In this document: positions 6,829-42,150 of the stretch, in pieces
How the letters are laid out: each line of letters opens with the position of its first letter
Position numbering within the stretch: position 1 is the stretch's first letter
Origin: Myxococcales bacterium
Lineage (GTDB): Bacteria > Myxococcota_A > Polyangia > Haliangiales > Haliangiaceae
DNA length: 64,000 bases
Direction of reading: 5' to 3'
Assembly (NCBI GenBank): GCA_016707895.1
Contig: JADJGV010000034.1
Coordinates: 501,625 to 565,624 of the forward strand
The notes under the pieces: generated by a model
Databases searched by the model: none
Told to the model about the DNA's origin: nothing
The model's input: the letters and a program-made list of their open reading frames with translations, nothing else
Position numbers and translations under genes: made by a program

Positions 6829-10248
<3,420 letters not shown>

Positions 10249-10252
<4 letters not shown>

Positions 10253-13200
10253 AGCGCACCTACGCGATCACCGTCTACGAGCGCAAGGTCGAGGGCACGC
10301 TGACCTGGACGCCGCTGGTGCCGCCGGGGTTGATCGCGGCGCTGAGCGGCAAGAGCGAGGTGCGGCTGCGCGAGCAGCTGGGCAAGCTGCTGGCCGCGGC
10401 GGTGCGCCAGGTCGAGCCCGAGCAGCACGAGCTGTTCGAGACCGCGCCCGGCACCCGGCTGCACCACGTGTCGCTGGATCTCAACCTGCGCGAGCGCGGG
10501 CGGGTCGGCGGGCGGTTCCCGCTGGTGCTCGAGCCGCGGTGGTTCACCGACGCGCGCCAGCGGCTGCTCGCGTACCACCCGGCGGATCCCAGCGCGTGGT
10601 TCGACGCCGACGACGTCCACGAGGTCGAGCGGCTGGCGGCGCACTTCGCGCGCCAGGCGTGGGCCAGCGACGACGTCACCGCGCTCGAGGCCAAGAAGAG
10701 CGCGGCCAAGGAGCGGCTGATCACGGTGTCGTTCGACCTGGCGCCGCGGACGCTGCTCGATCGCGCCAAGGCCGCGGCCGAGGGCAAGCAGCGGGCCGGG
10801 CTGGCGCGGTCGGTGCGCCAGCACCTGGCGCAGCTCGGCGTCGACCAGACCGCGCGCGCGATCGACGGCACCTTGCCGATGGGCGTGCCCCGGCCGGCCT
10901 ACCGGGCCCAGCTGGCGCGGCTCCTGGGCGGGCCGCGGCCGCGCTCGACGGTGCTGGTGGGACGTCCGGGATCCGGACGCGCGACGTTGCTGGCGCGCTG
11001 GGTCGGCGATCGGCTCGAGGCCGACGGCTGGTACCTGCACCGCAACGCCGATCGCGTGCACCGGGTGTGGCGGCTGTCGGGCAAGCGGCTGATCGCGGGC
11101 ATGCAGTACTTCGGCGACTGGGAGGACCGGCTGCTCGATCTGGTGACCGACGCCCGCGCCCACCGCGGCCTCCTGTGGTTCGACGATCTGCACCTGTTCG
11201 GGCGGCTGGGCGTGACCCGGCAGTCGGAGCGCTCGTTCGCCGACTTCTTCCGCGGCCCGGTGCAGCGCGGCGAGCTGACGATCGTCGCCACCGCGACCCG
11301 CGAGCAGCTGGCGCGGCTGGAGGACGACGCGCCGTCGTTCGCGCAGCTGTTCGCGCGGGTCGCGGTCGAGCCGACCGACGCCGCCGAGACCGCGGCGCTG
11401 ATGCTGGCCGAGGTGCGCCGGCTCGAGGCCGAGCACCCGGTCGAGGTCCACCCGTTCACGCCGCGGACGGTCTACGAGCTGGCCACCAGCCTGTACCCGT
11501 GGACCGCGACGCCGGGCGGGCCGATCGACATGCTGCGCAAGCTGGTGGCCGCCGCCGGGCCGCGGCCGGCGCCGGGGGCGCGGCGGGCGCTGCCGCCCGA
11601 GGCCGCGGTGGCGCAGGCGGCGCGCGACACCGGCCTGCCCGAGCACCTGATCACGCTCGACGCGCCGCTCGATCCGGCGGCGGTGACCGCGCACTTCGCG
11701 GCCCGGGTGATCGGCCAGGACGAGGCGGTGGCGGTGGCCACCGACGTGGTGGTCAAGGTGCGCGCCGGGTTGACCGACCCCGGGCGGCCGCTCGGCGTGT
11801 ACCTGTTCACCGGCCCCACCGGCACCGGCAAGACCGAGCTGGCCACCGCGCTGGCCGAGTACCTGTACGGCGAGCGCCGCCGGCTGGTGCGGCTCGACAT
11901 GAGCGAGCTGGCCGGCCCCGACGCGGTGGCGCGGCTGATCGGCGACCGCTTCACGCCCGACGGCCTGCTCACCAGCCGGATCCGCGAGCAGCCGTTCGCG
12001 GTGGTGCTGCTCGACGAGATCGAGAAGGCCCACCCGTCGGTGCTCGGGCTGCTCTTGCAGCTGTTCGACGAGGGCCGGCTGACCGACGCCGGCGGCGAGG
12101 TCGCGAGCTTCCGCCACGCGGTGATCGTGATGACCTCGAACCTGGGCGCGCGGGTGCAGCAGCCGATCGGGTTCGGCGACTCGACCGAGGCCGTGCTCGG
12201 GCAGATCGCCAAGGCCGTGCGCGAGTTCTTCCCGCCCGAGCTGTGGAACCGCATCGATCGCGTGGTGCGGTTCCGGCCGTTGACCGCCGAGGTCGCGGCG
12301 CGGGTGGTCGACAAGGAGCTGGCCAAGCTCCTGGGCCGGCGCGGCCTGCGCGAGCGCGACGTCTTCGTCTACGCCGGCCGGGCGGTGCGCGAGCGCGCGG
12401 TGGCGCAGGCGTTCGATCCGCGGTTCGGCGCGCGCACGGTCAAGCGCTGGCTCGAGGAGCACGTCGCCGGCGCGCTGACCGAGGCGTTGACCGAGGCGCC
12501 GCCGGCGCGGATGACCGTGGCCCGGCTGCGCGAGGAGGCCGGCGCGATCGCGGTGACGCTCGAGCTGGTGCCCGAGGCGGTCGCGTGGGGCGGCGGCTTC
12601 CCGCTGATCGAGGCCCGCGAGCTGTCGGCGGCGGCGCTGGTGCCGGCGGCCGAGGCGATGGCCGATCGCATCGACGCGCTCCTGGCCACCGATCCGGTGG
12701 GGCGGGCGCTGGCCACGTTGCGGGCCCGGCCCGACGGCGAGCGCGGGCGGTACTTCGTCGAGCACTTCGCCGACGAGCTGGCGGCGCTGCGGACGACGCT
12801 GGTCGGCCGCCGCCGGGCCCGGCCGGGGCCGATCGCGCCCGAGGCCCACGAGGAGCACGACCTCGAGGCCTGGCCGCGCGAGGCCCACGTCGAGAAGAGC
12901 GGCGCGTGGTCGCAGCGCCGCGAGGTGCGCCGCTACGATCCGCGCTCCGGCGATCGCGCGCCCAAGGCCGCCGCCGGCCAGGCGGCGACGCTGGCGGCGC
13001 TGGCGCGCGCCGAGCTGCTGCTCGGCCACGTCGACGAGCTGGCCGATCCCGACGCCCACGTCGTGACCGTGCTGGTCACGCCGGTCGGCGTGGTCGGCGG
13101 CGGGCCGCGGCCGCTGGGCTGGGGCCTGCTCGAGGCGCTGCGCGCGGTCGCCGATCAGGCGATGGCGCGCACCAAGGACGGCCGGATCGAGGCCTACCAG

Positions 13201-13617: not shown

Positions 13618-15884
<2,267 letters not shown>

Positions 15885-18907: not shown

Positions 18908-20083
18908 CGCCGACACGTCCAGCGTGACGCCGTCCCAGGCCAGCACGTCGCCGACGATCAGCTGCACCCGGCCGGCGCCGATGCGATCCTCGCCCAGCGT
19001 GAACGGCCCGGCCGCGCGGCCCAGCCACGGCGCGCCGGCGGTGAACGCGACCTCGCACGGCAGCCCGGCCGGCGCCAGGTCGATCACCTGATCGGGCCGC
19101 CCGATCACCAGCCGCCGGCCGCGGTCGAGGCCGCTGGCGACGCGCAGGTACGCGACCCCGTCGATCACCTCGAACTCGAGCCGGCAGTCCTCGCCCAGCT
19201 CGACCGCGCCGCGGCCGGCCAGCGGCACCTTGCCCGCCACCGGCAGCCCGCCGATCAGCGTGCCGTTGCGCGAGCCGGCGTCGCCGATCGTGAACCCGTC
19301 GCCGCCGACGGTGATCTCGGCGTGGCGGCGCGACACCCCGCCGGCGCGCAGCGGCAGATCGCACACCGCGTCGCGGCCCATCGCGACCAGGGGCCGGACG
19401 CTCACGATCACCGCGTCGCCGCCGCGCGGGCGCAGCTCGACCTTGCCGCCGCTGATCAGATCGGCGGTGAGCGCGTCGAGCACGCGCTGGCGATCGTCGG
19501 ACGGCTCGGCGGCCAGGCTGCGCGTCAGCGCGGCGCGCGCCTCGCCGCGGCGCCCGAGCCGGCGGTGCAGCTCGTAGTCGGCGAAGGCGTCGCGCGCCGA
19601 CTGCTCGGCGGTGGCGCGGCGCTCGTCGGCGGCCAGCGTGTCCTCGACGCGATCGATCAGGCCGGCGTCGGAGTAGGCCTGGGCCGCGCCGGCCAGCTCG
19701 CCGATCGCGGCCAGCGCGTCGCCGGCCTCGCGGTGGGCGCCGCCGGCCACGAGCAGCGCCGCCGCCTCGCGCACCCGCTCGCGATCGCGCGCGGTGGCGA
19801 CGCCCTCGGCCTTGGTCTTGGCGTACAGCGCGCGGCCCAGCGCCGCGGAGGCCTGGGCCACCAGCGCCGGCTCGTCGCCGGCCCAGTGCACCGCGTCGCG
19901 CAGCGCGGCCAGCTCGGCGGCGCGATCGGCGGCGCGCGCGGCCCGCGCCAGGTGCATGCGCACCGCGCCGGCGCGATCGCCGGCCAGGCCGTAGTGGGTC
20001 GCGGCGGTGTCGGGATCGCCCGCGGCCTCGGCGGCGCGCGCGGCGCGCAGGTCAGTCGAGAACAGCTGGCGGAAGATGCCCAC
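18905..20083 (-). CDS. Protein with a C-terminal FHA domain and an N-terminal TPR-like helical region
   Basis: FHA-domain hallmarks GRDAVCDLPLRAGGVSRRHAEI and SRNGTLIGGLPV. Translationally coupled to the downstream kinase. Confidence 0.75.
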
Positions 20084-20135
20084 GCGAGGGTCGATTATAC
20101 AGCCCGGCGTGGGCCCTCAGCGCCGGTCAGTTCGT

Positions 20136-20245
20136 TTCGCTCGAGCACCGGAGGACGCGTCGGGAGTCTCGCGTCGCGGGGGGAGGCTCGATCCCGGCTT
20201 TGCCGGGATCGAGGGGGGCTCGGCGACGAGCCCCCTGGAACTCAA
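20136..20245. repeat. Structured REP-like intergenic repeat, intact copy (two hairpins)
   Basis: GTTTCG..GACGCGTCGGGAGTCTCGCGTC..GGGGGGAGGCTCGATCCCGGCtttGCCGGGATCGAGGGGGGCTCGgcgacGAGCCCCCTG. A second copy at 31509-31561 plus 33026-33090 keeps both stems through compensatory substitutions. Confidence 0.6.
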
Positions 20246-22083
20246 GGAAGCGCGGCGCCGAAGCGCGCCTGGTACTCGGTGGCGAGCTGGGCCTTGGCGG
20301 CGGCGTCGCCGGCGCGGTCGAGGGCCTTGCCCAGCGCGCGGTAGGCCTGCGCCAGCTCGGGCTCGGCGGCGATCGCCGCGCGCAAGGACGCGATCCCGGC
20401 CGGCAGCTTGTTGCCCTGGGCCAGCATCACGCCGCGCAGGTACAGCGCCCAGGCCGCGCCGCTCCACGCGGCGATCGCCTGATCGCACAGCTTGCGCGCG
20501 GCCGGCACCGCCTGCTGGCGCAGCGCCAGGTCGCACTCGGCGGCGAGCAGCCCGGGCGCGCCGCGCCAGCGCTTGCCCGCGGCCTTGGCCAGCCGCTTGG
20601 CGTCGGCGAACTTGTCGGCGTAGATCGCCGCCAGCAGGTCGCGCACCGCCGCGACGTAGGCCGGCTCGTCGAGCGGCGCGATCTTGCCGGGGACGCCGCC
20701 CGGGGGCAGGCCGTAGCGGCCGCGGGTGCGCAGCACCCAGGCCAGCACGTCGGCGCCCACGCCCGGCTGACGCTGCTCGGCGCTCCGCGCGGCGCGCTCG
20801 GCGTCGGACACCAGCCCCAGGGCCAGGTACGCCTCGGCGGTGGCCATCCACACCGGCACGCGATCGCCGGCCATCGCGTCGACCGCCGCCAGGTGGGCGC
20901 GCGCGCCGGCGAGGTCGCCGCCGGACGCCAGCGCGCCGGCCAGCACCATCCGCGGTCGCGGATCGTCGGGCGCGACGTCGGCCACGCGCTGGCACGCCTT
21001 CACCGCGGCGTCGTCGGCGGCGCCGTCGCGCGCCACCCGCAGCTCGCAGATCGCCATCCGCACGTCGGGCGACGCCGGGTACGCGGCGGCGATCGCGTCG
21101 AGCTCGGCCAGCGCCTCGCCGAGCTTGCCGGCCTGGGCCAGCCGCCGCGCCGCCAGCAGCTGCTCGTTGGCCGCGCCGGCCAGGTCGACCGCGGCGCCGC
21201 CGCTGGCGTCGACCATGACCCGCAGCGCGGCGAGGAACTCGCCCTTGGCGTCGTCGTCCCAGCCGCCCCACGGGTTGCCCTCGAAGTAGCTGGTCAGCCG
21301 CGCCGCCAGCGTGCGCACGTCGAAGCTGCCCCGCGGCGCCAGCCAGGTCTCGAGCGACAGCTGCATGATCGCGCGGCTCGGCTCCGACAAGGTCGCCATC
21401 TCGGCGCTGTAGATCGCGGCCAGCAGCCAGGTCGGATCGTTCTCGTGCGGCGCGCCCAGCGTGTGGGCCAGCTCGTGCAACAGCACGACGGTCTGCTTGT
21501 GGCGGCGCCGCGCCAGGTGCACCCGCTCGCGCTCGGCGTCGCTGGTGTCGGGGAACAGCTGCGTGAACGCCTTGCGCTCGGCGCCGTCGGCGTAGCCGCG
21601 CACGACGACGTGGCGGCCCAGCGGGCGCGCCACGCCGAGCTCCTCGAAGCTGCCCTCGACCAGGCTCAGCGCCGACGCGTAGCCGATGACCCAGTCGACG
21701 TCGTCGCCGGGATCCTTGGCCTCGAGCGCCGCCAGCACGTCACCCAGCTTGCGATCGGCCGAGCGCGCGGGCCACGGCTCGATGGCCTTGGCCTCGAGGC
21801 GGACGCCGACCGCCGGCACCAGGAACTGGTTGGCCTCGTCGAGCTGCTCCTCGATCTGCTGCCGCCAGTGCAGCGTGCCGGCCCGGTAGTCCTCGTCGAC
21901 CCAGACCCGCACGCGCGCGGTGCGGGCCTCGCCCGGCAGCGGCCGCGCCACCTCGAGCCCGGCCGGCAGCGCCTTGCTCAGGTTGCGCCGCTGGATCTCC
22001 TTCTCCTTGGCCGCGTTCGAGAACGCGTTGGTGTAACAGCCGGCGGCCAGGGCCGCGATCGCACACAGGAGAGCGGCGCGCAT
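20242..22083 (-). CDS. Zn-metallopeptidase lipoprotein (HEXXH) with C-terminal TPR repeats
   Basis: Lipobox LAAGCYTN. HELAH in VVLLHELAHTLGAPHEND. TPR-like C-terminal third. Confidence 0.75.
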   Translation of the reverse strand: MRAALLCAIAALAAGCYTNAFSNAAKEKEIQRRNLSKALPAGLEVARPLPGEARTARVRVWVDEDYRAGTLHWRQQIEEQLDEANQFLVPAVGVRLEAKAIEPWPARSADRKLGDVLAALEAKDPGDDVDWVIGYASALSLVEGSFEELGVARPLGRHVVVRGYADGAERKAFTQLFPDTSDAERERVHLARRRHKQTVVLLHELAHTLGAPHENDPTWLLAAIYSAEMATLSEPSRAIMQLSLETWLAPRGSFDVRTLAARLTSYFEGNPWGGWDDDAKGEFLAALRVMVDASGGAAVDLAGAANEQLLAARRLAQAGKLGEALAELDAIAAAYPASPDVRMAICELRVARDGAADDAAVKACQRVADVAPDDPRPRMVLAGALASGGDLAGARAHLAAVDAMAGDRVPVWMATAEAYLALGLVSDAERAARSAEQRQPGVGADVLAWVLRTRGRYGLPPGGVPGKIAPLDEPAYVAAVRDLLAAIYADKFADAKRLAKAAGKRWRGAPGLLAAECDLALRQQAVPAARKLCDQAIAAWSGAAWALYLRGVMLAQGNKLPAGIASLRAAIAAEPELAQAYRALGKALDRAGDAAAKAQLATEYQARFGAALP

Positions 22084-29266: not shown

Positions 29267-29277
<11 letters not shown>

Positions 29278-31465
29278 TCTCCCCCGTCCCCGGGTGCTGA
29301 TCGTCGACGACGACGACATGACCCGCCTGCTCGCGACCGAGACCCTGGAGGGCGCGGGCTTCGAGGTGTTCGAGGCGGCCGACGGCGCGGCCGGCGTCGC
29401 CGCGCACGCCGAGCTGACGCCCGACCTGATGCTGCTCGACGTCAACATGCCCGGCCTCGACGGCTACGGCGTGTGCGCGCAGGTGCGGGCGCGGCCCGAG
29501 GGCAGCGCCACGCCGATCCTGGTGATGACCGCGCTCGACGACGTCGACGCCGTCGAGCGCGCGTTCGCCGCCGGCGCGACCGACTTCCTGACCAAGCCGC
29601 TCAACCTGCCGCTCCTGGCCCACCGGGTGCGCTACCTGCTGCGCGCGGCCCAGGCGTTCCACGACGAGCGCGAGCAGGCGCAGGTGCTGGCGCGGGTGCA
29701 GCGGCTCGCGCGGCTGGCCCACTGGCGGGTCGACGCGGCCGGCTTCGCCTGGGCGTGCGACGTCGGCGCCGTGCTGTGGCCCGAGGTGGCGGCGTCGGTG
29801 CCGGCGCCGCGCTCGCTGCTGGCGCTGGTCCACCCCGACGATCGCGACCTGGTCGCGACCGCGCTGACCACCACCGCGCCCCACCAGCTCGACTACCGGA
29901 TGGTCCTGCCCGACGGCAGCGAGCGCCTGGTCCGCCAGGACGCCGAGGTCATCGACGACGCCGGGCGGCCGGTGCTGATCGGCGCCACCCAGGACGTCAC
30001 CGAGCAGCGCGCGGCCGAGCGCCGGATCGCCCAGCTGGCGTTCTTCGACGATCTCACCGGCCTGCCCAGCCGCGCGTTCCTGCACCGGTTCTTGCGGCGG
30101 GTGCTGCTCGACGCGCGCGCCGCCGGCACGCCGGTGACGCTGATCAGCATCGGCATCGCGCTGGGCGCGGTGCCGGGCACCGTCAGCCCGACCGATCGCG
30201 ACGAGCTGCGCCGGGCCATCGCCGCGCGGGTGGTCGAGCACGTGCGCGGCGCCGATCTCGACCTGCGGCTCGATCAGCCGGTCGGAGATCCCGACGCCTG
30301 GGTCGGCGGCGCGCTGCTGGCGCGGCCCGGCTCCGACGAGCTGGTGCTGGTGTTGCGCGACGCGCGCGCCACCGAGCCCGAGCCGGTGGCGGCGCGGATC
30401 GCGGCGGCGCTGGCGGTCGGCTACCGGGTCGGCGACCACGAGCTGTTCGTGACCTCGCCGGTCGGCATCGCGACCTCGGACGACTCCGGCGACGACCCGC
30501 GGACGCTGATCGAGCACGCCCGGGCCGCCAGCCACCAGGCCCGGGTCGCGGGCCAGCCGGTCCACCGCTTCTCGGCCGACGTGCTGCGCGCGGCGCGGCG
30601 CTCGGCCGACTTCGAGCGCCGGGTCCGCACCGCGGTCGCGCGCCTCGGCGATCCCGCCCGGGAGCCGGAGTTCACGCTCTACTACCAGCCCAAGATCGAG
30701 CGCGGCAGCGGCCGCACCGTCGGGGTCGAGGCGTTGATGCGGTGGTTCCCGCCCGACGGGCCGCCGATCTCGCCGGGCGAGTTCATCCCGGTGGCCGAGC
30801 GCTCCAACGCGATCTCGCTCCTCGGCGACTGGCTGCTGCAGGAGGCGTGCGCCCAGGGCGCGGCCTGGGTCGAGGCCGGCACGCCGATCCACGTCGCGGT
30901 CAACGTCTCGCCCCGGCAGCTGCGCTCGGTCGGCTTCGTCGAGCGGGTGGTCGCGAGCGCGGCCGCCGCCGGCTTCGATCTCGGCCTGCTCGAGATCGAG
31001 ATCACCGAGCACGCCACCGTCGACGACTTCGATCAGGCGGCGGCGGTGCTGCACGCGCTGCGGGCGCGGGGCGCGCGGATCGTGCTCGACGACTTCGGCG
31101 TCGGCCAGTCGTCGCTGGCGTACGTCGCGCGGCTGCCGGTCGACGTGATCAAGATCGACCGCGCGTTCGTGGCCGGCCTCGGGCGCGACCCGGTCAGCGG
31201 CGCGATCGTCTCGGCGGTGATGGCGATGGCCGAGGCGCTCGACATCACCGTGGTGGTCGAGGGCGTCGAGACCGCGCAGCAGGTGCGGATCCTGGGGCGC
31301 TACCCGGCGTGCGAGATCCAGGGTTACTACTGCGCGCGGCCGGCGCCGCCCGCCGAGCTGACGCCGTTCCTCACCGGGCGCTTCGCGTGGAACGTCGACG
31401 ACGACGGCGCCGCGATCGAGATCGCCGTCGACGACGTGCCCGGCGAGGTCGTGCTGGCGTCGTGA
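29267..31465 (+). CDS. Response regulator REC-PAS-GGDEF(degenerate)-EAL, a predicted c-di-GMP phosphodiesterase
   Basis: [14 protein letters not shown]...[16 protein letters not shown] replaced by GDHELF. EAL motifs [19 protein letters not shown] and DVIKIDRAF. Confidence 0.85.
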
Positions 31466-31508
31466 CCTGGCCCGGCCGAGGGAGGTGCGGCGACCGGCCG
31501 GAGCCTGC

Positions 31509-31561
31509 ACGTGTTTCGTTTGAGCCCCCGTCGACGCGTCGGGAGTCTCGCGTCCTGGGGG
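31509..31561. repeat. Left half of the second REP-like repeat copy, interrupted by the IS
   Basis: GTTTCGTTTGAGCCCCCGTCGACGCGTCGGGAGTCTCGCGTCCTGGGGG matches the 5' half of the copy at 20136-20245. Confidence 0.55.
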
Positions 31562-33025
31562 CTGACCATTGGCTACAAGTCCCCGGCGCCGTGACGGAGG
31601 GCGGTGACGGCAGCGGCGGCGGCCGCGACGCGCTCAAGCCCGCGCGTGATGATGCGGACGCCTGGTGGTCCGCCCGAGGATTTGCCCGTGTAGCCGCCGA
31701 TGTCGGCGATCCAGTAGACCAGTTGGCCGACGGTCGCGTCGGCACCGACGGTGACGCCCTTGGGCTTCCGGAGGAGGATGACGGCGTCGATCTCGTCGCG
31801 CGAGAACTCGGTCGCCGCTGGCAGTTCAGGGGTTGTGCGCGATAGCTGCTTGAGGTGTTCAGCCCGGATGGCCACGGTGGCCAAGACGGTAGCCCACTTG
31901 GTGAACGCCGCGACGCTGCGGAGCAGCGAGTCCTCGATGCCGCACGCGCCCGACTTCCAGGCCAGGTGGAACTCCTCGACGCGCCACCGCATCGTGTAGC
32001 CGACGATGACGTCGTGGGCCGCGGCCATCGTGACGACCGACCGGTTGGTCAACAGGCGCCAGTGGATCGGCTCGGCACCGTCGGGTTGATGCCGCTCGCG
32101 CGCCTCGAGCGCGGTCACCGCGAACTGCTCGAACGGGCCCATGCCCGATCGCCCGAGGGGCACGATCAGCTTGACCACACAGGCCCGAACGTCGACGAGC
32201 GCCGTGCGCGCAGCGCGGTCGCGCGTCGCGGGAACGCGCAGCGTATACGCACCCAGCCACCGGCTCGCGCCCAGGACCTCGTTGAGGCTGCGCGTCCCGG
32301 TGTCGGTTGCGACCCGCCGGTTCGACGACGCACGCACCGTGTAGGCCACGTCGAGGCGTGCGAGGTGGCGCAACACCGGCGTCGCGTCACCGCCGCGGTC
32401 GAGTTGGAACCACGGCAACGTCGCCGGCGCGAGCGCCGCCAGGGTCTCCGCACTCATCGTCAACACGTCGATCCAGCGCTGCAACTCGGTCTCTTCGACG
32501 GGCGGCCGCGCGTTGTGGGGTTGCGCGCGCTGCGACCACGACCGCGTCCAGATCGCCTGCGCACCCAGTCCGACCGGCACGCCCTCGGGACTCACGAGCA
32601 GCGCCGACACCGCCTGTAAGCCACTCACGCCGGTGTTGCGCGTCGACAGCGGCCCGAAGTGCGTGCCGGCGCGATCCGTCAGCCCCAGCGCGCTCTGGTC
32701 GACCGGGACGAACACGATGTTGAACGCCGCGGCGCTGCGCGCGCCCGCGCGAAACGCCGCCTGCTGCACTTCGTCTGCGACGACGGCGCGGTTCTCAAGC
32801 AACCGATACGCCGCCTCGCGTTCGGCGCCTTCGAAGACCTGGGTCACGCGGCCGTTGGGGCGCTCGCTCACGCCCGCGGCTATCTCGACCAACCGCGCGG
32901 TCCGTCGCGCGTCGCCGAGCGCTGCATCACCAAACGTCGACGTGGCCCACGCAAGCTGGCTATTCTGCACCTCGAGCAAATCCACGGCCTTGGGCCGAAA
33001 TTCCCGAGATGTGATCAATGGTCAG
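31562..33025 (-). mobile_element. IS4-family insertion sequence with about 11-bp terminal inverted repeats (CTGACCATTGG / CCAATGGTCAG-like) and a 10-bp target-site duplication GTCCTGGGGG
   Basis: Transposase ORF carrying the IS4 signature GYTMRWRVEEFHLAWK (Y-2-R-3-E-6-K). Terminal inverted repeats at 31562-31572 and 33015-33025. The direct repeat GTCCTGGGGG at 31552-31561 and 33026-33035 flanks the element. It sits inside a REP-like repeat copy. Confidence 0.8.
31573..33018 (-). CDS. IS4-family DDE transposase
   Basis: 481-aa ORF with the YxxRxxxE..K motif. Locally lower GC. The reported start is a TTG. Confidence 0.8.
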   Translation of the reverse strand: MITSREFRPKAVDLLEVQNSQLAWATSTFGDAALGDARRTARLVEIAAGVSERPNGRVTQVFEGAEREAAYRLLENRAVVADEVQQAAFRAGARSAAAFNIVFVPVDQSALGLTDRAGTHFGPLSTRNTGVSGLQAVSALLVSPEGVPVGLGAQAIWTRSWSQRAQPHNARPPVEETELQRWIDVLTMSAETLAALAPATLPWFQLDRGGDATPVLRHLARLDVAYTVRASSNRRVATDTGTRSLNEVLGASRWLGAYTLRVPATRDRAARTALVDVRACVVKLIVPLGRSGMGPFEQFAVTALEARERHQPDGAEPIHWRLLTNRSVVTMAAAHDVIVGYTMRWRVEEFHLAWKSGACGIEDSLLRSVAAFTKWATVLATVAIRAEHLKQLSRTTPELPAATEFSRDEIDAVILLRKPKGVTVGADATVGQLVYWIADIGGYTGKSSGGPPGVRIITRGLERVAAAAAAVTALRHGAGDL

Positions 33026-33090
33026 GTCCTGGGGGGAGGCTCGTCGGGGACCTGGCCCCGACGAGGGGGGCTGGGCGACCAGCCCCCTGC
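33026..33090. repeat. Right half of the second REP-like repeat copy (two hairpins)
   Basis: GGGGGGAGGCTCGTCGGGGAcctggCCCCGACGAGGGGGGCTGGgcgacCCAGCCCCCTG. The hairpin stems match the copy at 20136-20245 through compensatory changes. Confidence 0.55.
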
Positions 33091-33093
33091 CAC

Positions 33094-34049
33094 TCAGCGC
33101 ATGAACGTGCGCCGCACCAGGTCGACCGCGCGTGGCCCGAGGGTCTCGCCGCGCCACGCCAGCGCGCGCGACACCACCAGCGCCTTGTCGGCCGGGTTGA
33201 TCCGCGGCCGATCGGCGAACAGGCGCGGGCCGGCCGCGGCGATCTTGTCGAGGATGCGCATGCCGCCGTGCCACATCAGCGCCAGCTCGACCGCGAGGTC
33301 GGGGCCGACCACGTCGACCAGCGGGCGGGCGCGCTCGAACAGCGCCCGGGTGCGCGCCACCTCGTAGCGGACCAGCGCGCCGACCTGCGGCGTCGTGCGC
33401 CGGGCCTCGACGTCGGCCTCGCTGACGCCGAAGTGGCGCAGGTCCTCCTGCGGCACGTAGATCCGGCCCCGGGCGAGGTCGGCCGGCATGTCCTGGATCA
33501 GCCGCGCGAACGCCAGCCCGGTCGCCAGGTCGGCGGCGAACGCGTGCAGCTCGGGGGCGCGGTAGCCGCCGATGTACAACAGCAGGTGCCCGACCGGCTC
33601 GGCGGCCTCGCGGGTGTAGGCGCGCAGGTCGTTCCAGGTCGGGTAGCGCAGCGTCTCGAGATCGGTCCGGAACCCGGACACCAGCTTGACGAACTCGGTG
33701 ATCGGCAGGGCCAGCGACTTGATCGTCGCGGCCAGCGCGACGAACACCGGGTGCTCGGGCGGCTTGCCGAAGTAGGTCTGGTGCAGCAGCTCCTCCCAGC
33801 GATCGAGCTCGCGCGCGCGCCGGCCCTCGTAGGCCGGCTCGTCGGCGAAGTCGTCGGCGACCCGCGCGAACGCGAAGATCGCGAAGATGTGCTGGCGCAG
33901 GTTCGAGCGCGCGAAGATCGACGCCACCGGGAAGTTGTGGTGGTGGGCGCGGCACAGCGCCTCGCAGTAGCGGTAACAGGCGCCGACCTCGAGCGAGGGC
34001 GGCAGCGGGACGGCTTGGGCGGTGGCGCGGCGGTCGCCGATGCGGTGGA

Positions 34050-34056
<7 letters not shown>
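33094..34056 (-). CDS. Squalene/phytoene synthase family protein (HpnD/HpnC- or CrtB-like)
   Basis: YRYCEALCRAHHHNF, ARVADDFADE and the DxxxD-type motifs of trans-isoprenyl diphosphate synthase head-to-head enzymes. Confidence 0.7.
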
Positions 34057-40203: not shown

Positions 40204-40272
40204 CGGCGAGCGCGCGGTGTTAGCACGGGGCTCGACGCGATGCCGAGTTCCCGGCGCCAACCGTGCGGTGGG

Positions 40273-42150
40273 CTACGGCGCGACCGCGGCAGAACCCGTG
40301 CCCGTCCCCGAACCCGAACCCGTCGCCGTGCCCGTCCCCGATCCCGTCCCCGATCCCGATCCCGTCCCCGATCCCGTCCCCGATCCCGATCCCGTCCCCG
40401 ATCCCGATCCCGTCCCCGATCCCGTCCCCGATCCCGCGCCCACGCCGGCGTCGCCATCGTCGGCGGCCGGCGCGGCGTCCTCGGTGTCGGTGTCCTCGGT
40501 GTCGGTGTCCTCGGTGTCGGTGTCCTCGGTGTCCTCGTCCTCGTCGTCCTCGAAGTCGCCGCCGTCGTCGGCGCCGCCGTTGGCCTCGACCCAATCGGCG
40601 ATCTTCGCCGTCTCGCAGGCCTTGGCCTCATCCGGCGCCTTCTTGCGGCAGTTGGTGACGTCGGTGAACAGGCCCAGGCAGTTCTCGCGCTCGAACTCGT
40701 CCTCGATGCCCTTGCACTCGTCCTGCTTCTTGACCGTGCCGTCGGGCAGGGTGACCTCGTCGACGTTGATCACCGCCTGGGCGCTGGACTTCACCACCGC
40801 CACCAGGCCGTCGAGGGTCCCGGTGGGCTTGGGCGGCGGCACCACGGTCAGGCTCGGCACGTAGGTCACGATCAACAGCGCCGCCATCACGGTGAACATG
40901 AATGGCAAGGTCGCGACCGTGACCTCCAGCAACGGTTTTCGAAACTTGAAGCTGGAGATGAACAGGTTGAGGCCGATCGGTGGGTGCAGGTAGCCGATCT
41001 CGAGGTTGAGCAAGAAGATCACGCCGAGGTGGTACGGGCTGACGTCGTACTCGTGGGCCACGGGCGCGATCAGCGGCACGACGATCAAGATCGCCGAGAA
41101 GATGTCCATGACCATGCCGGTCAGGAGCAAGAGCCCGTTGAGCGCCAGCAGGAACGCCCACCGCGAGTCGATGTGGTCGCGGGTCCAGTGCACCAGCTTG
41201 GCGGGGACGCCCGCGGTCACCAGGTAGTTGGTCAGCGCGGTCGCCGAGTAGATGATGATGAAGATCGCGCCGATCAGCGCCATCGACTCCTTGGTGATGG
41301 CCCACAGCGCCTGGGGCTTGAGGTCGCGGAAGATGCCCATCTCGACGATGATCAGGTACAGCACCGTCAGCGACGCGATCTGCGAGATGTCGCCGACGCC
41401 CTTGGCCAGGCCCAGCAAGATCAAGATCGGCAGGAAGATCACCGGCAGCGCGCCGGGCAGCGAGGCGAACAGCTCGCCCCACTCGAACTTCTGGCGCGGC
41501 ACCTTCTTGATGATCGCGATCGCCACCACCAGCGCCGACAGCATCAGGATCAGCAGCGCGCCCGGGATGATGCCGGCGAAGTAGAAGCGCTCGGTGGCCC
41601 ACTCCCATTGCCAGTTCTCGGGCTTGGGCTGGATGCGCTGCAGGCCATAGATCGTGCCGAACAGGATGATCGGCAGGGCCGGCGGGAACAGCAGGCCGAC
41701 CGAGCCGGTGCCGGTCACCAGGCCGAGCGCGAACCGCTCGGGGTACCGCTGCTTGATCAGCGCCGGCATCAACAGGCCGCCGAGCGCGACGATCGTGACG
41801 CCCGAGGCGCCGGTGAACGTGGTGTACACCGAGCACGCCAGGATCGTGACGATGCCGAGCCCGCCCGGCACCCAGCCCAGCGCGGCGTTGGCGAAGCGCA
41901 CCAGCCGCTCGGCGGTCTTCGACGCGGCCATCACGTAGCCGGCGTAGATGAACAGCGGGATGCTCGAGAAGATCGTCGACTTGTCGCCGGTGCCGAGGCT
42001 GAAGAACTCGTAGGCGAAGCCGCCGAAGTCCTTCTCGAAGCCCTTGGTGCCGGTCTCGGCGCCGATCGCGGTCAAGAACAACATCACCGCGAACAGCGGC
42101 GAGCCGGCGACGAACGCCAGCACCAGCAGGATGATCAGGAGCGTCAGCAT
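40273..42150 (-). CDS. dctM: TRAP transporter large permease DctM with an unusual C-terminal extension of about 190 aa (Cys-rich segment, acidic TEDTD repeats, GSGTGSG repeats)
   Basis: DctM-like polytopic core followed by DECKGIEDEFERENCLGLFTDVTNCRKK...ACETAKI, then EDTDTEDTDTEDTDTED and GSGTGSGTGSGSGTGSG encoded by DNA tandem repeats. Confidence 0.8.
   Translation of the reverse strand: MLTLLIILLVLAFVAGSPLFAVMLFLTAIGAETGTKGFEKDFGGFAYEFFSLGTGDKSTIFSSIPLFIYAGYVMAASKTAERLVRFANAALGWVPGGLGIVTILACSVYTTFTGASGVTIVALGGLLMPALIKQRYPERFALGLVTGTGSVGLLFPPALPIILFGTIYGLQRIQPKPENWQWEWATERFYFAGIIPGALLILMLSALVVAIAIIKKVPRQKFEWGELFASLPGALPVIFLPILILLGLAKGVGDISQIASLTVLYLIIVEMGIFRDLKPQALWAITKESMALIGAIFIIIYSATALTNYLVTAGVPAKLVHWTRDHIDSRWAFLLALNGLLLLTGMVMDIFSAILIVVPLIAPVAHEYDVSPYHLGVIFLLNLEIGYLHPPIGLNLFISSFKFRKPLLEVTVATLPFMFTVMAALLIVTYVPSLTVVPPPKPTGTLDGLVAVVKSSAQAVINVDEVTLPDGTVKKQDECKGIEDEFERENCLGLFTDVTNCRKKAPDEAKACETAKIADWVEANGGADDGGDFEDDEDEDTEDTDTEDTDTEDTDTEDAAPAADDGDAGVGAGSGTGSGTGSGSGTGSGSGTGSGTGSGSGTGSGTGTATGSGSGTGTGSAAVAP
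40290..40560. repeat. Coding hexanucleotide and 12-bp tandem repeats (GATCCC/GTCCCC units and gtcctcggtgtcggt units) that encode the DctM tail
   Basis: Directly visible periodic DNA. GC is locally lower. Confidence 0.7.

Follow-up and report, generated by a model that had tools for sequence, protein, structure and literature searches.

The stretch of DNA analyzed here, a window of 64,000 nucleotides from an uncultured Myxococcales bacterium (contig JADJGV010000034.1 of assembly GCA_016707895.1, positions 501,625 to 565,624), carries a transposase gene between the 3' ends of two convergent genes, one for a response regulator with an EAL domain and one for an isoprenoid synthase. The locus raises the question of how the transposase gene came to lie there, and whether its insertion sequence (IS) landed by chance or at a preferred target. 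An original prediction, made from the sequence alone, described an IS4-family element inserted with a 10-bp target-site duplication inside an element resembling a repetitive extragenic palindromic (REP) sequence. The reading reached here, with high confidence, is that a Tn5-like IS of the IS4 family recently inserted at a fixed position of a dispersed hairpin repeat of about 110 nt between the convergent genes, duplicating 10 bp of its target.

The boundaries of the element can be read directly from the window, which runs from GTCCTGGGGG into CTGACCATTGGCTACAAG..., continues to ...GATCAATGGTCAG at position 33025 and then repeats GTCCTGGGGG. The 10-mer GTCCTGGGGG occurs twice in the window, both times flanking the IS, against a chance expectation of 0.25, and two or more copies were present in 1 of 100 shuffled windows. 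The terminal 10-mer CTGACCATTG is confined to the two IS ends, where it lies in inverted orientation. Compared position by position, the inverted repeats agree perfectly over their first 10 bp and at 15 of 20 positions overall. The elements of the original prediction are all present at their coordinates, and the duplication is exact on both sides; the inverted-repeat ends also stand, with one correction, in that the right end, TCAATGGTCAG, reads ...GATCAATGGTCAG and not ...CCAATGGTCAG, so that their perfect match covers 10 bp rather than 11 bp. The G+C content is 69-73% inside the IS versus about 75-80% in the flanking genes. A search for further copies of the IS within the window returned none.

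Natural alleles with and without the element were obtained by retrieving nine public contigs that encode the exact EAL protein (L030-L038). In three of them (L030, L031 and L035) the EAL gene is followed by the repeat without the IS, and in the two contigs that are long enough (L030 and L031) the empty spacer reaches the synthase gene. Three further contigs (L033, L036 and L037) have the same filled junction as the window, and L034 breaks exactly at the IS junction. The L030 contig aligns to the window with 100% identity over 3277 nt of the left flank and 99.9% identity over 3914 nt of the right flank, and the two alignments overlap by exactly 10 bp, the length of the duplication. The empty alleles hold a single GTCCTGGGGG inside an intact repeat of about 110 nt. 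An empty site was reconstructed by deleting the IS and one 10-mer, and was compared over a stretch running from the last 30 nt of the EAL gene through the spacer and ~30 nt into the synthase gene. Over this stretch L031 equals the reconstruction base for base, and L030 differs from it by one extra G in a G-run and in no other way. Because the empty alleles match the flanks and carry a single 10-mer, these natural empty sites directly demonstrate that the element inserted, where its limits lie and that 10 bp were duplicated. The event is recent, and near-identical strains known from metagenomes of wastewater type are polymorphic for it. The comparison with strains lacking the insertion that had been proposed as a check therefore came out in its favor through L030, L031 and L035, and the proposal that the flanks reconstitute one repeat copy, so that the empty site can be inferred, is borne out by the L030 and L031 alleles and by a paralogue of the repeat at 20132-20249.

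A third spacer allele, 81 nt shorter, is found in more divergent strains (98.4-99.4% identity) at L032 2640-2712 and L038 2454-2501, corresponding to window positions 31466-31561 and 33036-33093. Missing from this allele is AGGGAGGTGCGG...GTCCTGG, and with it the left portion of the repeat and the larger share of the IS target; on its right side the deletion ends within the G-run of the target 10-mer. An old indel of the repeat could account for the allele, as could the scar of an excision and repair event.

The repeat itself is a unit of about 110 nt made up of a left block (GTTTCG...GAGC...GGGAGTCTCGCGTCCTGGGGGGAGG), hairpin 2, hairpin 3, whose loop is GCGA, and a tail (CTGNNACTCA). Covariation supports the hairpins, with six base pairs changed on both sides and pairing kept among four copies, and a single-strand DNA fold of the repeat gives z = -4.0. 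An additional hairpin 1 (GACGCG...CGCGTC), considered for the left part of the repeat, was rejected as unsupported by other copies. The uninterrupted, unoccupied paralogue in the window has GTCGCGGGGG as the 10-mer at the target position. A degenerate copy of the right part lies beside the EAL gene, where positions 31464-31499 are 81% identical to 33049-33084 in a repeat search and 31460-31497 give a weak nhmmer match (E = 0.014). Further copies are found in other contigs beside other copies of the IS (L001, L003 and others). Searched against Rfam, the whole window yields no match at gathering thresholds, and the interval 20050-20320 gives chance-level hits alone (E about 0.5 or higher). With no Rfam family matched, the repeat is therefore not a known structured RNA. 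Every repeat copy with known context is extragenic and follows a stop codon, and the copy at the insertion lies between convergent genes. Since the unit is palindromic, extragenic and dispersed, 'REP-like' is a fair description, with the composite length of about 110 nt making it more similar to a bacterial interspersed mosaic element (BIME) than to a single REP of 20-40 nt, the kind of unit associated with a REP-associated tyrosine transposase (RAYT). The paralogue alignment, the profile matches and the covarying hairpins together uphold the placement of the insertion inside a REP-like element.

The position of the repeat relative to stop codons is an observation in its own right. The 3' tail (...CTCA) ends in the reverse-complement TGA stop of the converging gene in 5 of 5 copies with known context, namely at 33090-33096 and 20238-20244 in the window and at about 1530-1540 in L001, about 2920-2935 in L003 and 2900-2926 in L039. 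The repeat always begins immediately after a stop codon or supplies the stop. This arrangement suggests that the repeat may have a role in the 3' untranslated region, as a terminator or mRNA stabilizer, or that its own insertion may be tied mechanistically to stop codons. Also related to the repeat is the 12-mer GAGTCTCGCGTC, which with up to two mismatches has 5 matches in the whole window versus a mean of 26.8 in dinucleotide shuffles, making it about five-fold rarer than in the shuffles; the two exact matches in the window both lie inside repeat copies.

Whether the repeat is a preferred target was addressed through other copies of the same IS. A transposase scan of the genome collection gave one locus, L001, in a Myxococcales metagenome-assembled genome (MAG), and the remaining copies came from a metagenome scan and an exact-protein look-up that returned many short contigs. 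The exact transposase protein is present in 26 collection blocks, of which 24 contigs were read, mostly of IS length, and the same element is found at 97.8-99% DNA identity in L001 and L003. The L001 contig begins exactly at one IS end, and the other end abuts GTCCTGGGGG followed by GAGGCTCGGCGGGG...; this is the same position of the repeat in a different repeat copy, next to a different gene and with the IS in the opposite orientation relative to the repeat. Altogether, nine distinct insertion sites of this IS were found, and 8 of 9 are at the same position of the repeat family, five in one orientation and three in the other. In all six repeat-family sites for which the left flank was recovered, gtctcgc joins GTNNNGGNNG, so that GTCTCGC stands directly 5' of the duplication. 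At a second site (S2), a matching 10-bp duplication, CCACCAGGAC, is co-assembled on both sides (L028 and L029). The suggested search for other copies and their targets thus succeeded in yielding nine sites, with the genome scan contributing a single locus. The idea of a REP-like hotspot is strengthened by these sites and sharpened to one fixed position in the repeat. The prediction had named, as grounds for giving it up, a lack of duplication in other copies together with a coincidental similarity of the flanks to the repeat; instead, CCACCAGGAC is duplicated and the repeat family is real. Among the contigs read, L026 carries within positions 1-69 a Nextera adapter that was not trimmed (...AGATGTGTATAAGAGACAG) and that joins the contig 14 nt away from the IS junction, an assembly contaminant.

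The same sites bear on the idea that the IS inserts randomly, as Tn5 does, and that its association with the repeat reflects survival in harmless intergenic DNA. Tn5 itself has a weak target consensus (cited in PMC1525189), and a single site among the nine falls outside the repeat family, as random insertion would allow. Selection for intergenic positions cannot, however, produce eight of nine insertions at one nucleotide beside GTCTCGC in different copies of a repeat that accounts for roughly 0.3% of the window, whose 64 kb hold two copies of it and a fragment. Random insertion is largely refuted by these sites and is considered very improbable.

A different account would make the repeat halves part of the mobile element, as long terminal repeats or as the shell of an element like a MITE (a miniature transposable element with inverted repeats), so that no target existed beforehand. 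The observation that could be read this way comes from distant relatives of the IS in L005, L007, L009, L013 and L017, in which one flank is, over 26-112 nt, an imperfect inverted copy of the other and not a direct repeat of it. At the window site, however, the flanks make up the two halves of the repeat, left and right, rather than inverted copies, a complete repeat with just one 10-mer is present in the empty allele, and an uninterrupted paralogue exists. Solo repeats are without any IS-end sequence, and the flanks vary between copies while the IS stays 98-100% identical. For this IS the empty allele and the solo paralogue contradict the MITE or long-terminal-repeat account, which is rejected and given practically no chance of being correct. 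As for the inverted flanks of the relatives, a fold-back assembly artefact was rejected as their source, given that the palindromic stretch is imperfect and stops after 26-112 nt, which makes it repeat-sized and not contig-sized. Their likeliest origin is chimeric joins or recombination between oppositely oriented copies. The flanks of L012 show, by eye, an inverted stretch of about 17 nt offset by one base.

The transposase identifies the kind of element that inserted at the repeat. NCBIfam model NF033590 (transpos_IS4_3, 'IS4 family transposase') matches it with 242.4 bits against a cutoff of 160, and the Pfam matches are Tnp_DNA_bind, DDE_Tnp_1 and Dimer_Tnp_Tn5; PF14706 (47.3 bits) and PF02281 (31.2 bits), for the Tn5-type N-terminal DNA-binding and C-terminal dimerization domains, both exceed their cutoffs. 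Among PDB entries, HMMER matches the Tn5 transposase (E = 2.7e-28 over residues 23-398). The motifs VDQS, LDRGGD and RWRVEE are aligned opposite EDTT, CDREAD and RWRIEE of Tn5, and, as we read the alignment, VDQS, LDRGGD and RWRVEEFHLAWK stand opposite Tn5 residues D97, D188 and E326 together with the YREK motif. By approximate manual count, the DDE residues of the longest open reading frame (ORF) are D ~106, D ~207 and E ~348, with spacings of ~100 and ~140 residues that fit the D(60-110)D(100-150)E pattern of the IS4 family (PMC2266710). The ORF also has the Y(2)R(3)E(6)K motif, in the form YTMRWRVEEFHLAWK, aligned with YTHRWRIEEFHKAWK of Tn5. The other characters of the family are likewise found, in the form of a single ORF, short imperfect inverted repeats (10-40 bp) and a duplication of about one helix turn. 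The original assignment to the IS4 family from the signature YTMRWRVEEFHLAWK is confirmed by the NCBIfam, Pfam and Tn5 structure matches.

Read at its longest, the ORF encodes 481 aa and starts within the inverted repeat, at a TTG. The true start is probably the GTG at codon 12 (about 32985), for a product of 470 aa, because the Tn5 transposase alignment begins at query residues 22-23, opposite Tn5 residues 11-14, and because NCBI annotates 470 aa for a 98%-identical MAG copy (P0001).

Within the family, the IS50 subgroup is characterized by a length of 1350-1550 bp, ends starting with 5'-CT, the end signature CW------Y---CA-A--W- and a duplication of 8-9 bp (PMC2266710 Table 1). The element, at 1464 bp, is within this size range, its ends begin with 5'-CT, and the signature is matched at 6 of 6 specified positions by the proximal end (CTGACCATTGATCACATCTC) and at 5 of 6 by the distal end. 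From these features, the element appears as an IS4-family member that is closest to the IS50/Tn5 subgroup and has a slightly longer duplication.

If the element moves as Tn5 does, transposition would proceed by cut-and-paste, with a transposase dimer synapsing the two CTGACCATTG... ends and the two 3'-OH ends attacking the target 10 bp apart, which would leave the 10-bp duplication. The target would be captured at the conserved block GTCTCGC-N10-GAGGCTC, through its sequence, through a geometry that deforms easily or tends to form hairpins, or through both, and the block may be recognized by the transposase itself. The use of both orientations would follow from the two-fold symmetry of the transpososome.

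Distant relatives of the IS bear on which property of the target is recognized. At 41-57% amino-acid identity, such relatives abound in Myxococcales MAGs and in metagenomes of soil and wastewater, almost always on contigs of IS length, and they share the conserved ends CTGACCATTGATCAC... and ...GGCTAATGGTCAG. Relatives with matching flanks have duplications of 8-10 bp that fall largely on the loop of a G-rich/C-rich hairpin (Table 1). In L039, from another Myxococcales MAG, a Tn5-like IS with 53% amino-acid identity and ends CTGATCATTGATCAG is inserted into a member of the repeat family seen in the window, within the GCGA loop of hairpin 3. Two IS therefore use one repeat family at two different positions. 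Beside these, an isolated 14-bp piece of an IS end (CTGACCATTGATCA), accompanied by a repeated target (GGGGCCTTCCCGC), lies within positions 1-45 of L014, immediately upstream of a full IS copy; it may be what an earlier insertion or excision left at the same hairpin.

It is possible, though on balance somewhat doubtful, that targeting is by structure, in the form of the loop of an extruded or easily bent hairpin, and not by the sequence GTCTCGC...GAGGCTC. The L039 insertion in a hairpin loop fits such targeting, as do L004, L006, L010, L016 and L040, in which the duplicated bases are largely the loop. Perfect bracketing stems of at least 5 bp are found at 7 of 11 reconstructed targets of the clade versus 13% of random window positions (binomial P about 1e-4), in what is a rough test with controls drawn mostly from the coding DNA of one genome. 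Against it, the bases adjoining the duplication are strongly conserved, and the stem bracketing the window IS is weak, with 3 perfect bp, or 6 of 7 pairs plus a T.G pair for GAGTCTC/GAGGCTC. Because this bracketing hairpin is weak, structure-directed recognition is not established. A broader proposal, held tentatively and at slightly less than even confidence, is that insertion may have become nearly site-specific in the evolution of the whole Tn5-like clade, the targets being loops, or blocks close to loops, in the G/C-rich hairpins of REP-like repeats, with duplication of the loop (8-10 bp). The clade meant by this tentative proposal is the one frequent in MAGs of Myxococcales and in metagenomes from soil and wastewater, whose members hit different positions of the same repeat family, as the window IS and the L039 element do.

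Several points, besides the weak bracketing stem, weigh against insertion of a Tn5-like IS at a fixed position of a dispersed REP-like repeat. The ninth site, CCTTCAGAAG, lies outside the repeat family. Both flanks are co-assembled at the window site and one other alone. The extra copies of the IS are mostly on short metagenome contigs that are visibly chimeric across IS copies, and L002, L020, L021 and L022 pair flanks from different sites; junctions on chimeric contigs are still informative. The repeat is represented by at least 10 distinct copies over all fetched DNA and by two copies and one fragment in the window; REP elements typically number tens to hundreds per genome. The duplication is 10 bp at the window and at S2, a minor departure from the 8-9 bp of the IS50 subgroup. 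Finally, the transposition activity and mechanism of the IS, which is intact and looks active, are deduced from homology.

Table 1. Coordinates and sequences of the insertion sequence, the repeat, the flanking genes, the insertion targets and the distant relatives. Positions are those of the window unless another contig is given.
Feature	Position or site	Strand	Details
Insertion sequence (IS)	31562-33025	-	1464 bp, Tn5/IS50-like, IS4 family; ends CTGACCATTG / CAATGGTCAG
Transposase ORF	31573-33018	-	Intact; fills the IS; contains YTMRWRVEEFHLAWK
Transposase-distal terminal inverted repeat	31562-31581	+	CTGACCATTGGCTACAAGTC
Transposase-proximal terminal inverted repeat	33006-33025	-	Reverse complement CTGACCATTGATCACATCTC
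Target-site duplication, left copy	31552-31561		GTCCTGGGGG, 10 bp; single copy in empty alleles
Target-site duplication, right copy	33026-33035		GTCCTGGGGG, 10 bp; single copy in empty alleles
Interrupted repeat, left part	31512-31561	+	GTGTTTCGTTTGAGC...GGGAGTCTCGC, then the duplicated 10-mer; nhmmer profile match
Interrupted repeat, right part	33026-33099	+	Hairpins 2 and 3 and tail
Hairpin 2	33040-33065		CTCGTCGGGG ACCTGG CCCCGACGAG
Hairpin 3	33066-33087		GGGGGCTGG GCGA CCAGCCCCC
Repeat tail			CTGCCACTCA; ends in synthase stop codon 33094-33096
Degenerate partial copy of the repeat's right part	31460-31499	+	Starts just before and overlaps the EAL stop codon
Uninterrupted, unoccupied paralogue of the repeat	20132-20249	+	nhmmer E = 6.8e-31
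Response regulator gene with PAS, GGDEF and EAL domains	29267-31465	+	Flanking gene
Squalene/phytoene synthase family gene	33094-34053	-	Flanking gene; stop codon 33094-33096
Target 10-mer	Window site; also L001 site (seen from the right side alone)		GTCCTGGGGG
Target 10-mers	Further repeat-family sites		GTCCTGGTGG, GTCCTGGAGG, GTTTCGGGTG, GTCTTGGGTG, GTATTGGGTG
Target 10-mer	Repeat-family site in 87% variant of the IS		GTATCGGAAG
Relative, duplication	L004		ACGTTCCCGT, 10 bp
Relative, duplication	L006		GGACCTTCAC, 10 bp
Relative, duplication	L008		CTCTCGCAAG, 10 bp
Relative, duplication	L010		8-9 bp (CTTTCCCG and one mismatched base)
Relative, duplication	L015		9 bp, 8/9 bases matching
Relative, duplication	L016		CCTTTGAGG, 9 bp
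Relative, duplication	L040 (82-kb contig)		ACCAATGCGC, 10 bp
Relative, IS and duplication	L039 1437-2899 (GCA_016717005.1, JADJUF010000015.1)		CTGGCGAC, 8 bp

The genes on either side of the insertion determine what it might disturb. The gene calls confirm that the EAL and isoprenoid-synthase genes converge on the insertion, as originally described. In the gene calls, which include those for L030 and L031, the synthase gene is the last of a mevalonate-pathway cluster that also contains genes for hydroxymethylglutaryl-CoA (HMG-CoA) reductase, a GHMP kinase and a diphosphomevalonate decarboxylase-like protein. The original prediction raised the possibility that the insertion alters termination or expression, which might occur through the loss of a shared terminator or stabilizer, through read-through from the operon into the transposase gene or through antisense transcription from the EAL gene into the IS. 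The layout offers some ground for this, in that the transposase gene is read in the same direction as the synthase operon, beginning 78 nt past its stop codon, and in that the repeat is split, with its left part separated from hairpins 2 and 3. Those two hairpins nevertheless remain contiguous with the synthase stop codon, and filled and empty alleles occur in near-identical backgrounds, as expected of a nearly neutral change. A consensus scan of 31300-33300 found no sigma-70-like promoter and no T-tailed terminator, a result that is uninformative at about 75% G+C. An effect of this kind on the neighbors is judged unlikely. The effect on the neighboring genes is instead probably small, because the synthase stop keeps hairpins 2 and 3 beside it and the EAL gene is still followed by a partial repeat able to form a hairpin. 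The coexistence of filled and empty alleles suggests near-neutrality, and an extragenic repeat between gene ends would constitute a 'safe' site.

The combination of transposase and target can be compared with known systems. The inside end of IS50, CTGTCTCTTGATCAGATCT, is matched at 15 of 19 positions by the proximal end of the window element, CTGACCATTGATCACATCT. The element further resembles IS50/Tn5 in its transposase, with an N-terminal DNA-binding domain, a DDE core with the YREK motif and a Tn5 dimerization domain, and in its single ORF, its length and its end sequences. It differs in that the match to Tn5, although significant, is modest, in its longer duplication, in a near-fixed position in a repeat as opposed to the weak target consensus of Tn5, and in its Myxococcales host, compared with the mainly proteobacterial hosts of the subgroup (PMC2266710). 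A precedent for the target is ISRm22 of Sinorhizobium meliloti, an IS4-family element of which all copies are at one REP position (PMC1525189), as the window IS is in its repeat. ISRm22 belongs, however, to the IS4Sa subgroup, with 5'-CA ends and a reported 6-bp duplication at the palindrome axis (PMC2266710 for the subgroup), and its host and REP family are unrelated to those of the window. Some copies of ISRm22 have hybrid flanks attributed to recombination between copies (PMC1525189; PMC2266710).

Elements of other families behave in a similar way. IS1397 and ISKpn1 insert specifically into REP palindromic units, and experimental evidence suggests that the transposase itself chooses the target; they differ from the window element in belonging to the IS3 family, in which transposases are usually encoded by two ORFs that sometimes overlap (PMC1525189). 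IS621, ISPpu9, ISPpu10 and ISPa11 of the IS110 family insert strictly at one REP position (PMC1525189; PMC11208160), unlike the window IS in that they use a DEDD recombinase guided by a bridge/seek RNA, nothing of which is found in the window element. Targeting of REP sequences is documented for IS3 (IS1397, ISKpn1 and ISPsy8) and IS110 (IS621, ISPpu9, ISPpu10 and ISPa11) elements, and also for the IS256 and IS5 families and for ISRm22 as one IS4-family element (PMC1525189). A literature search for REP-targeting in the IS50 subgroup or for REP elements in myxobacteria found none, which is an absence of evidence only. The targeting of REP sequences by IS is already known behavior, of which the window IS is another case.

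Two other features of the window were noted. Positions 40268-40453 contain a long run of tandem units of 6, 12 and 18 nt (GATCCCGTCCCC and similar) that is probably coding, and it is followed at 40507-40588 by GTCCTCG-type repeats. Three paralogous segments at 8325-8694, 11780-12149 and 15085-15400 are 68-82% identical and about 3.3-3.45 kb apart, one with a ...GGCGTCGGCAAGACCGAGCTGGC... stretch and the other two with close variants, an arrangement that suggests three tandem paralogous genes.

For the genome itself the insertion is routine and sits where it probably does little harm. Its wider interest, which is modest, is that the few IS known to target REP-type repeats are joined by a Tn5/IS50-like lineage; ISRm22 is the sole IS4-family case found in the literature. 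It also brings to light an apparently undescribed family of dispersed hairpin repeats in Myxococcales, which lies against stop codons and at which at least two different IS land. Tn5 transposase is the standard tool for tagmentation and mutagenesis, and a naturally target-selective relative would merit biochemical study. If the tentative proposal of near site-specific insertion throughout the clade were true, these elements would represent a natural, protein-encoded and target-selective version of an otherwise promiscuous enzyme.

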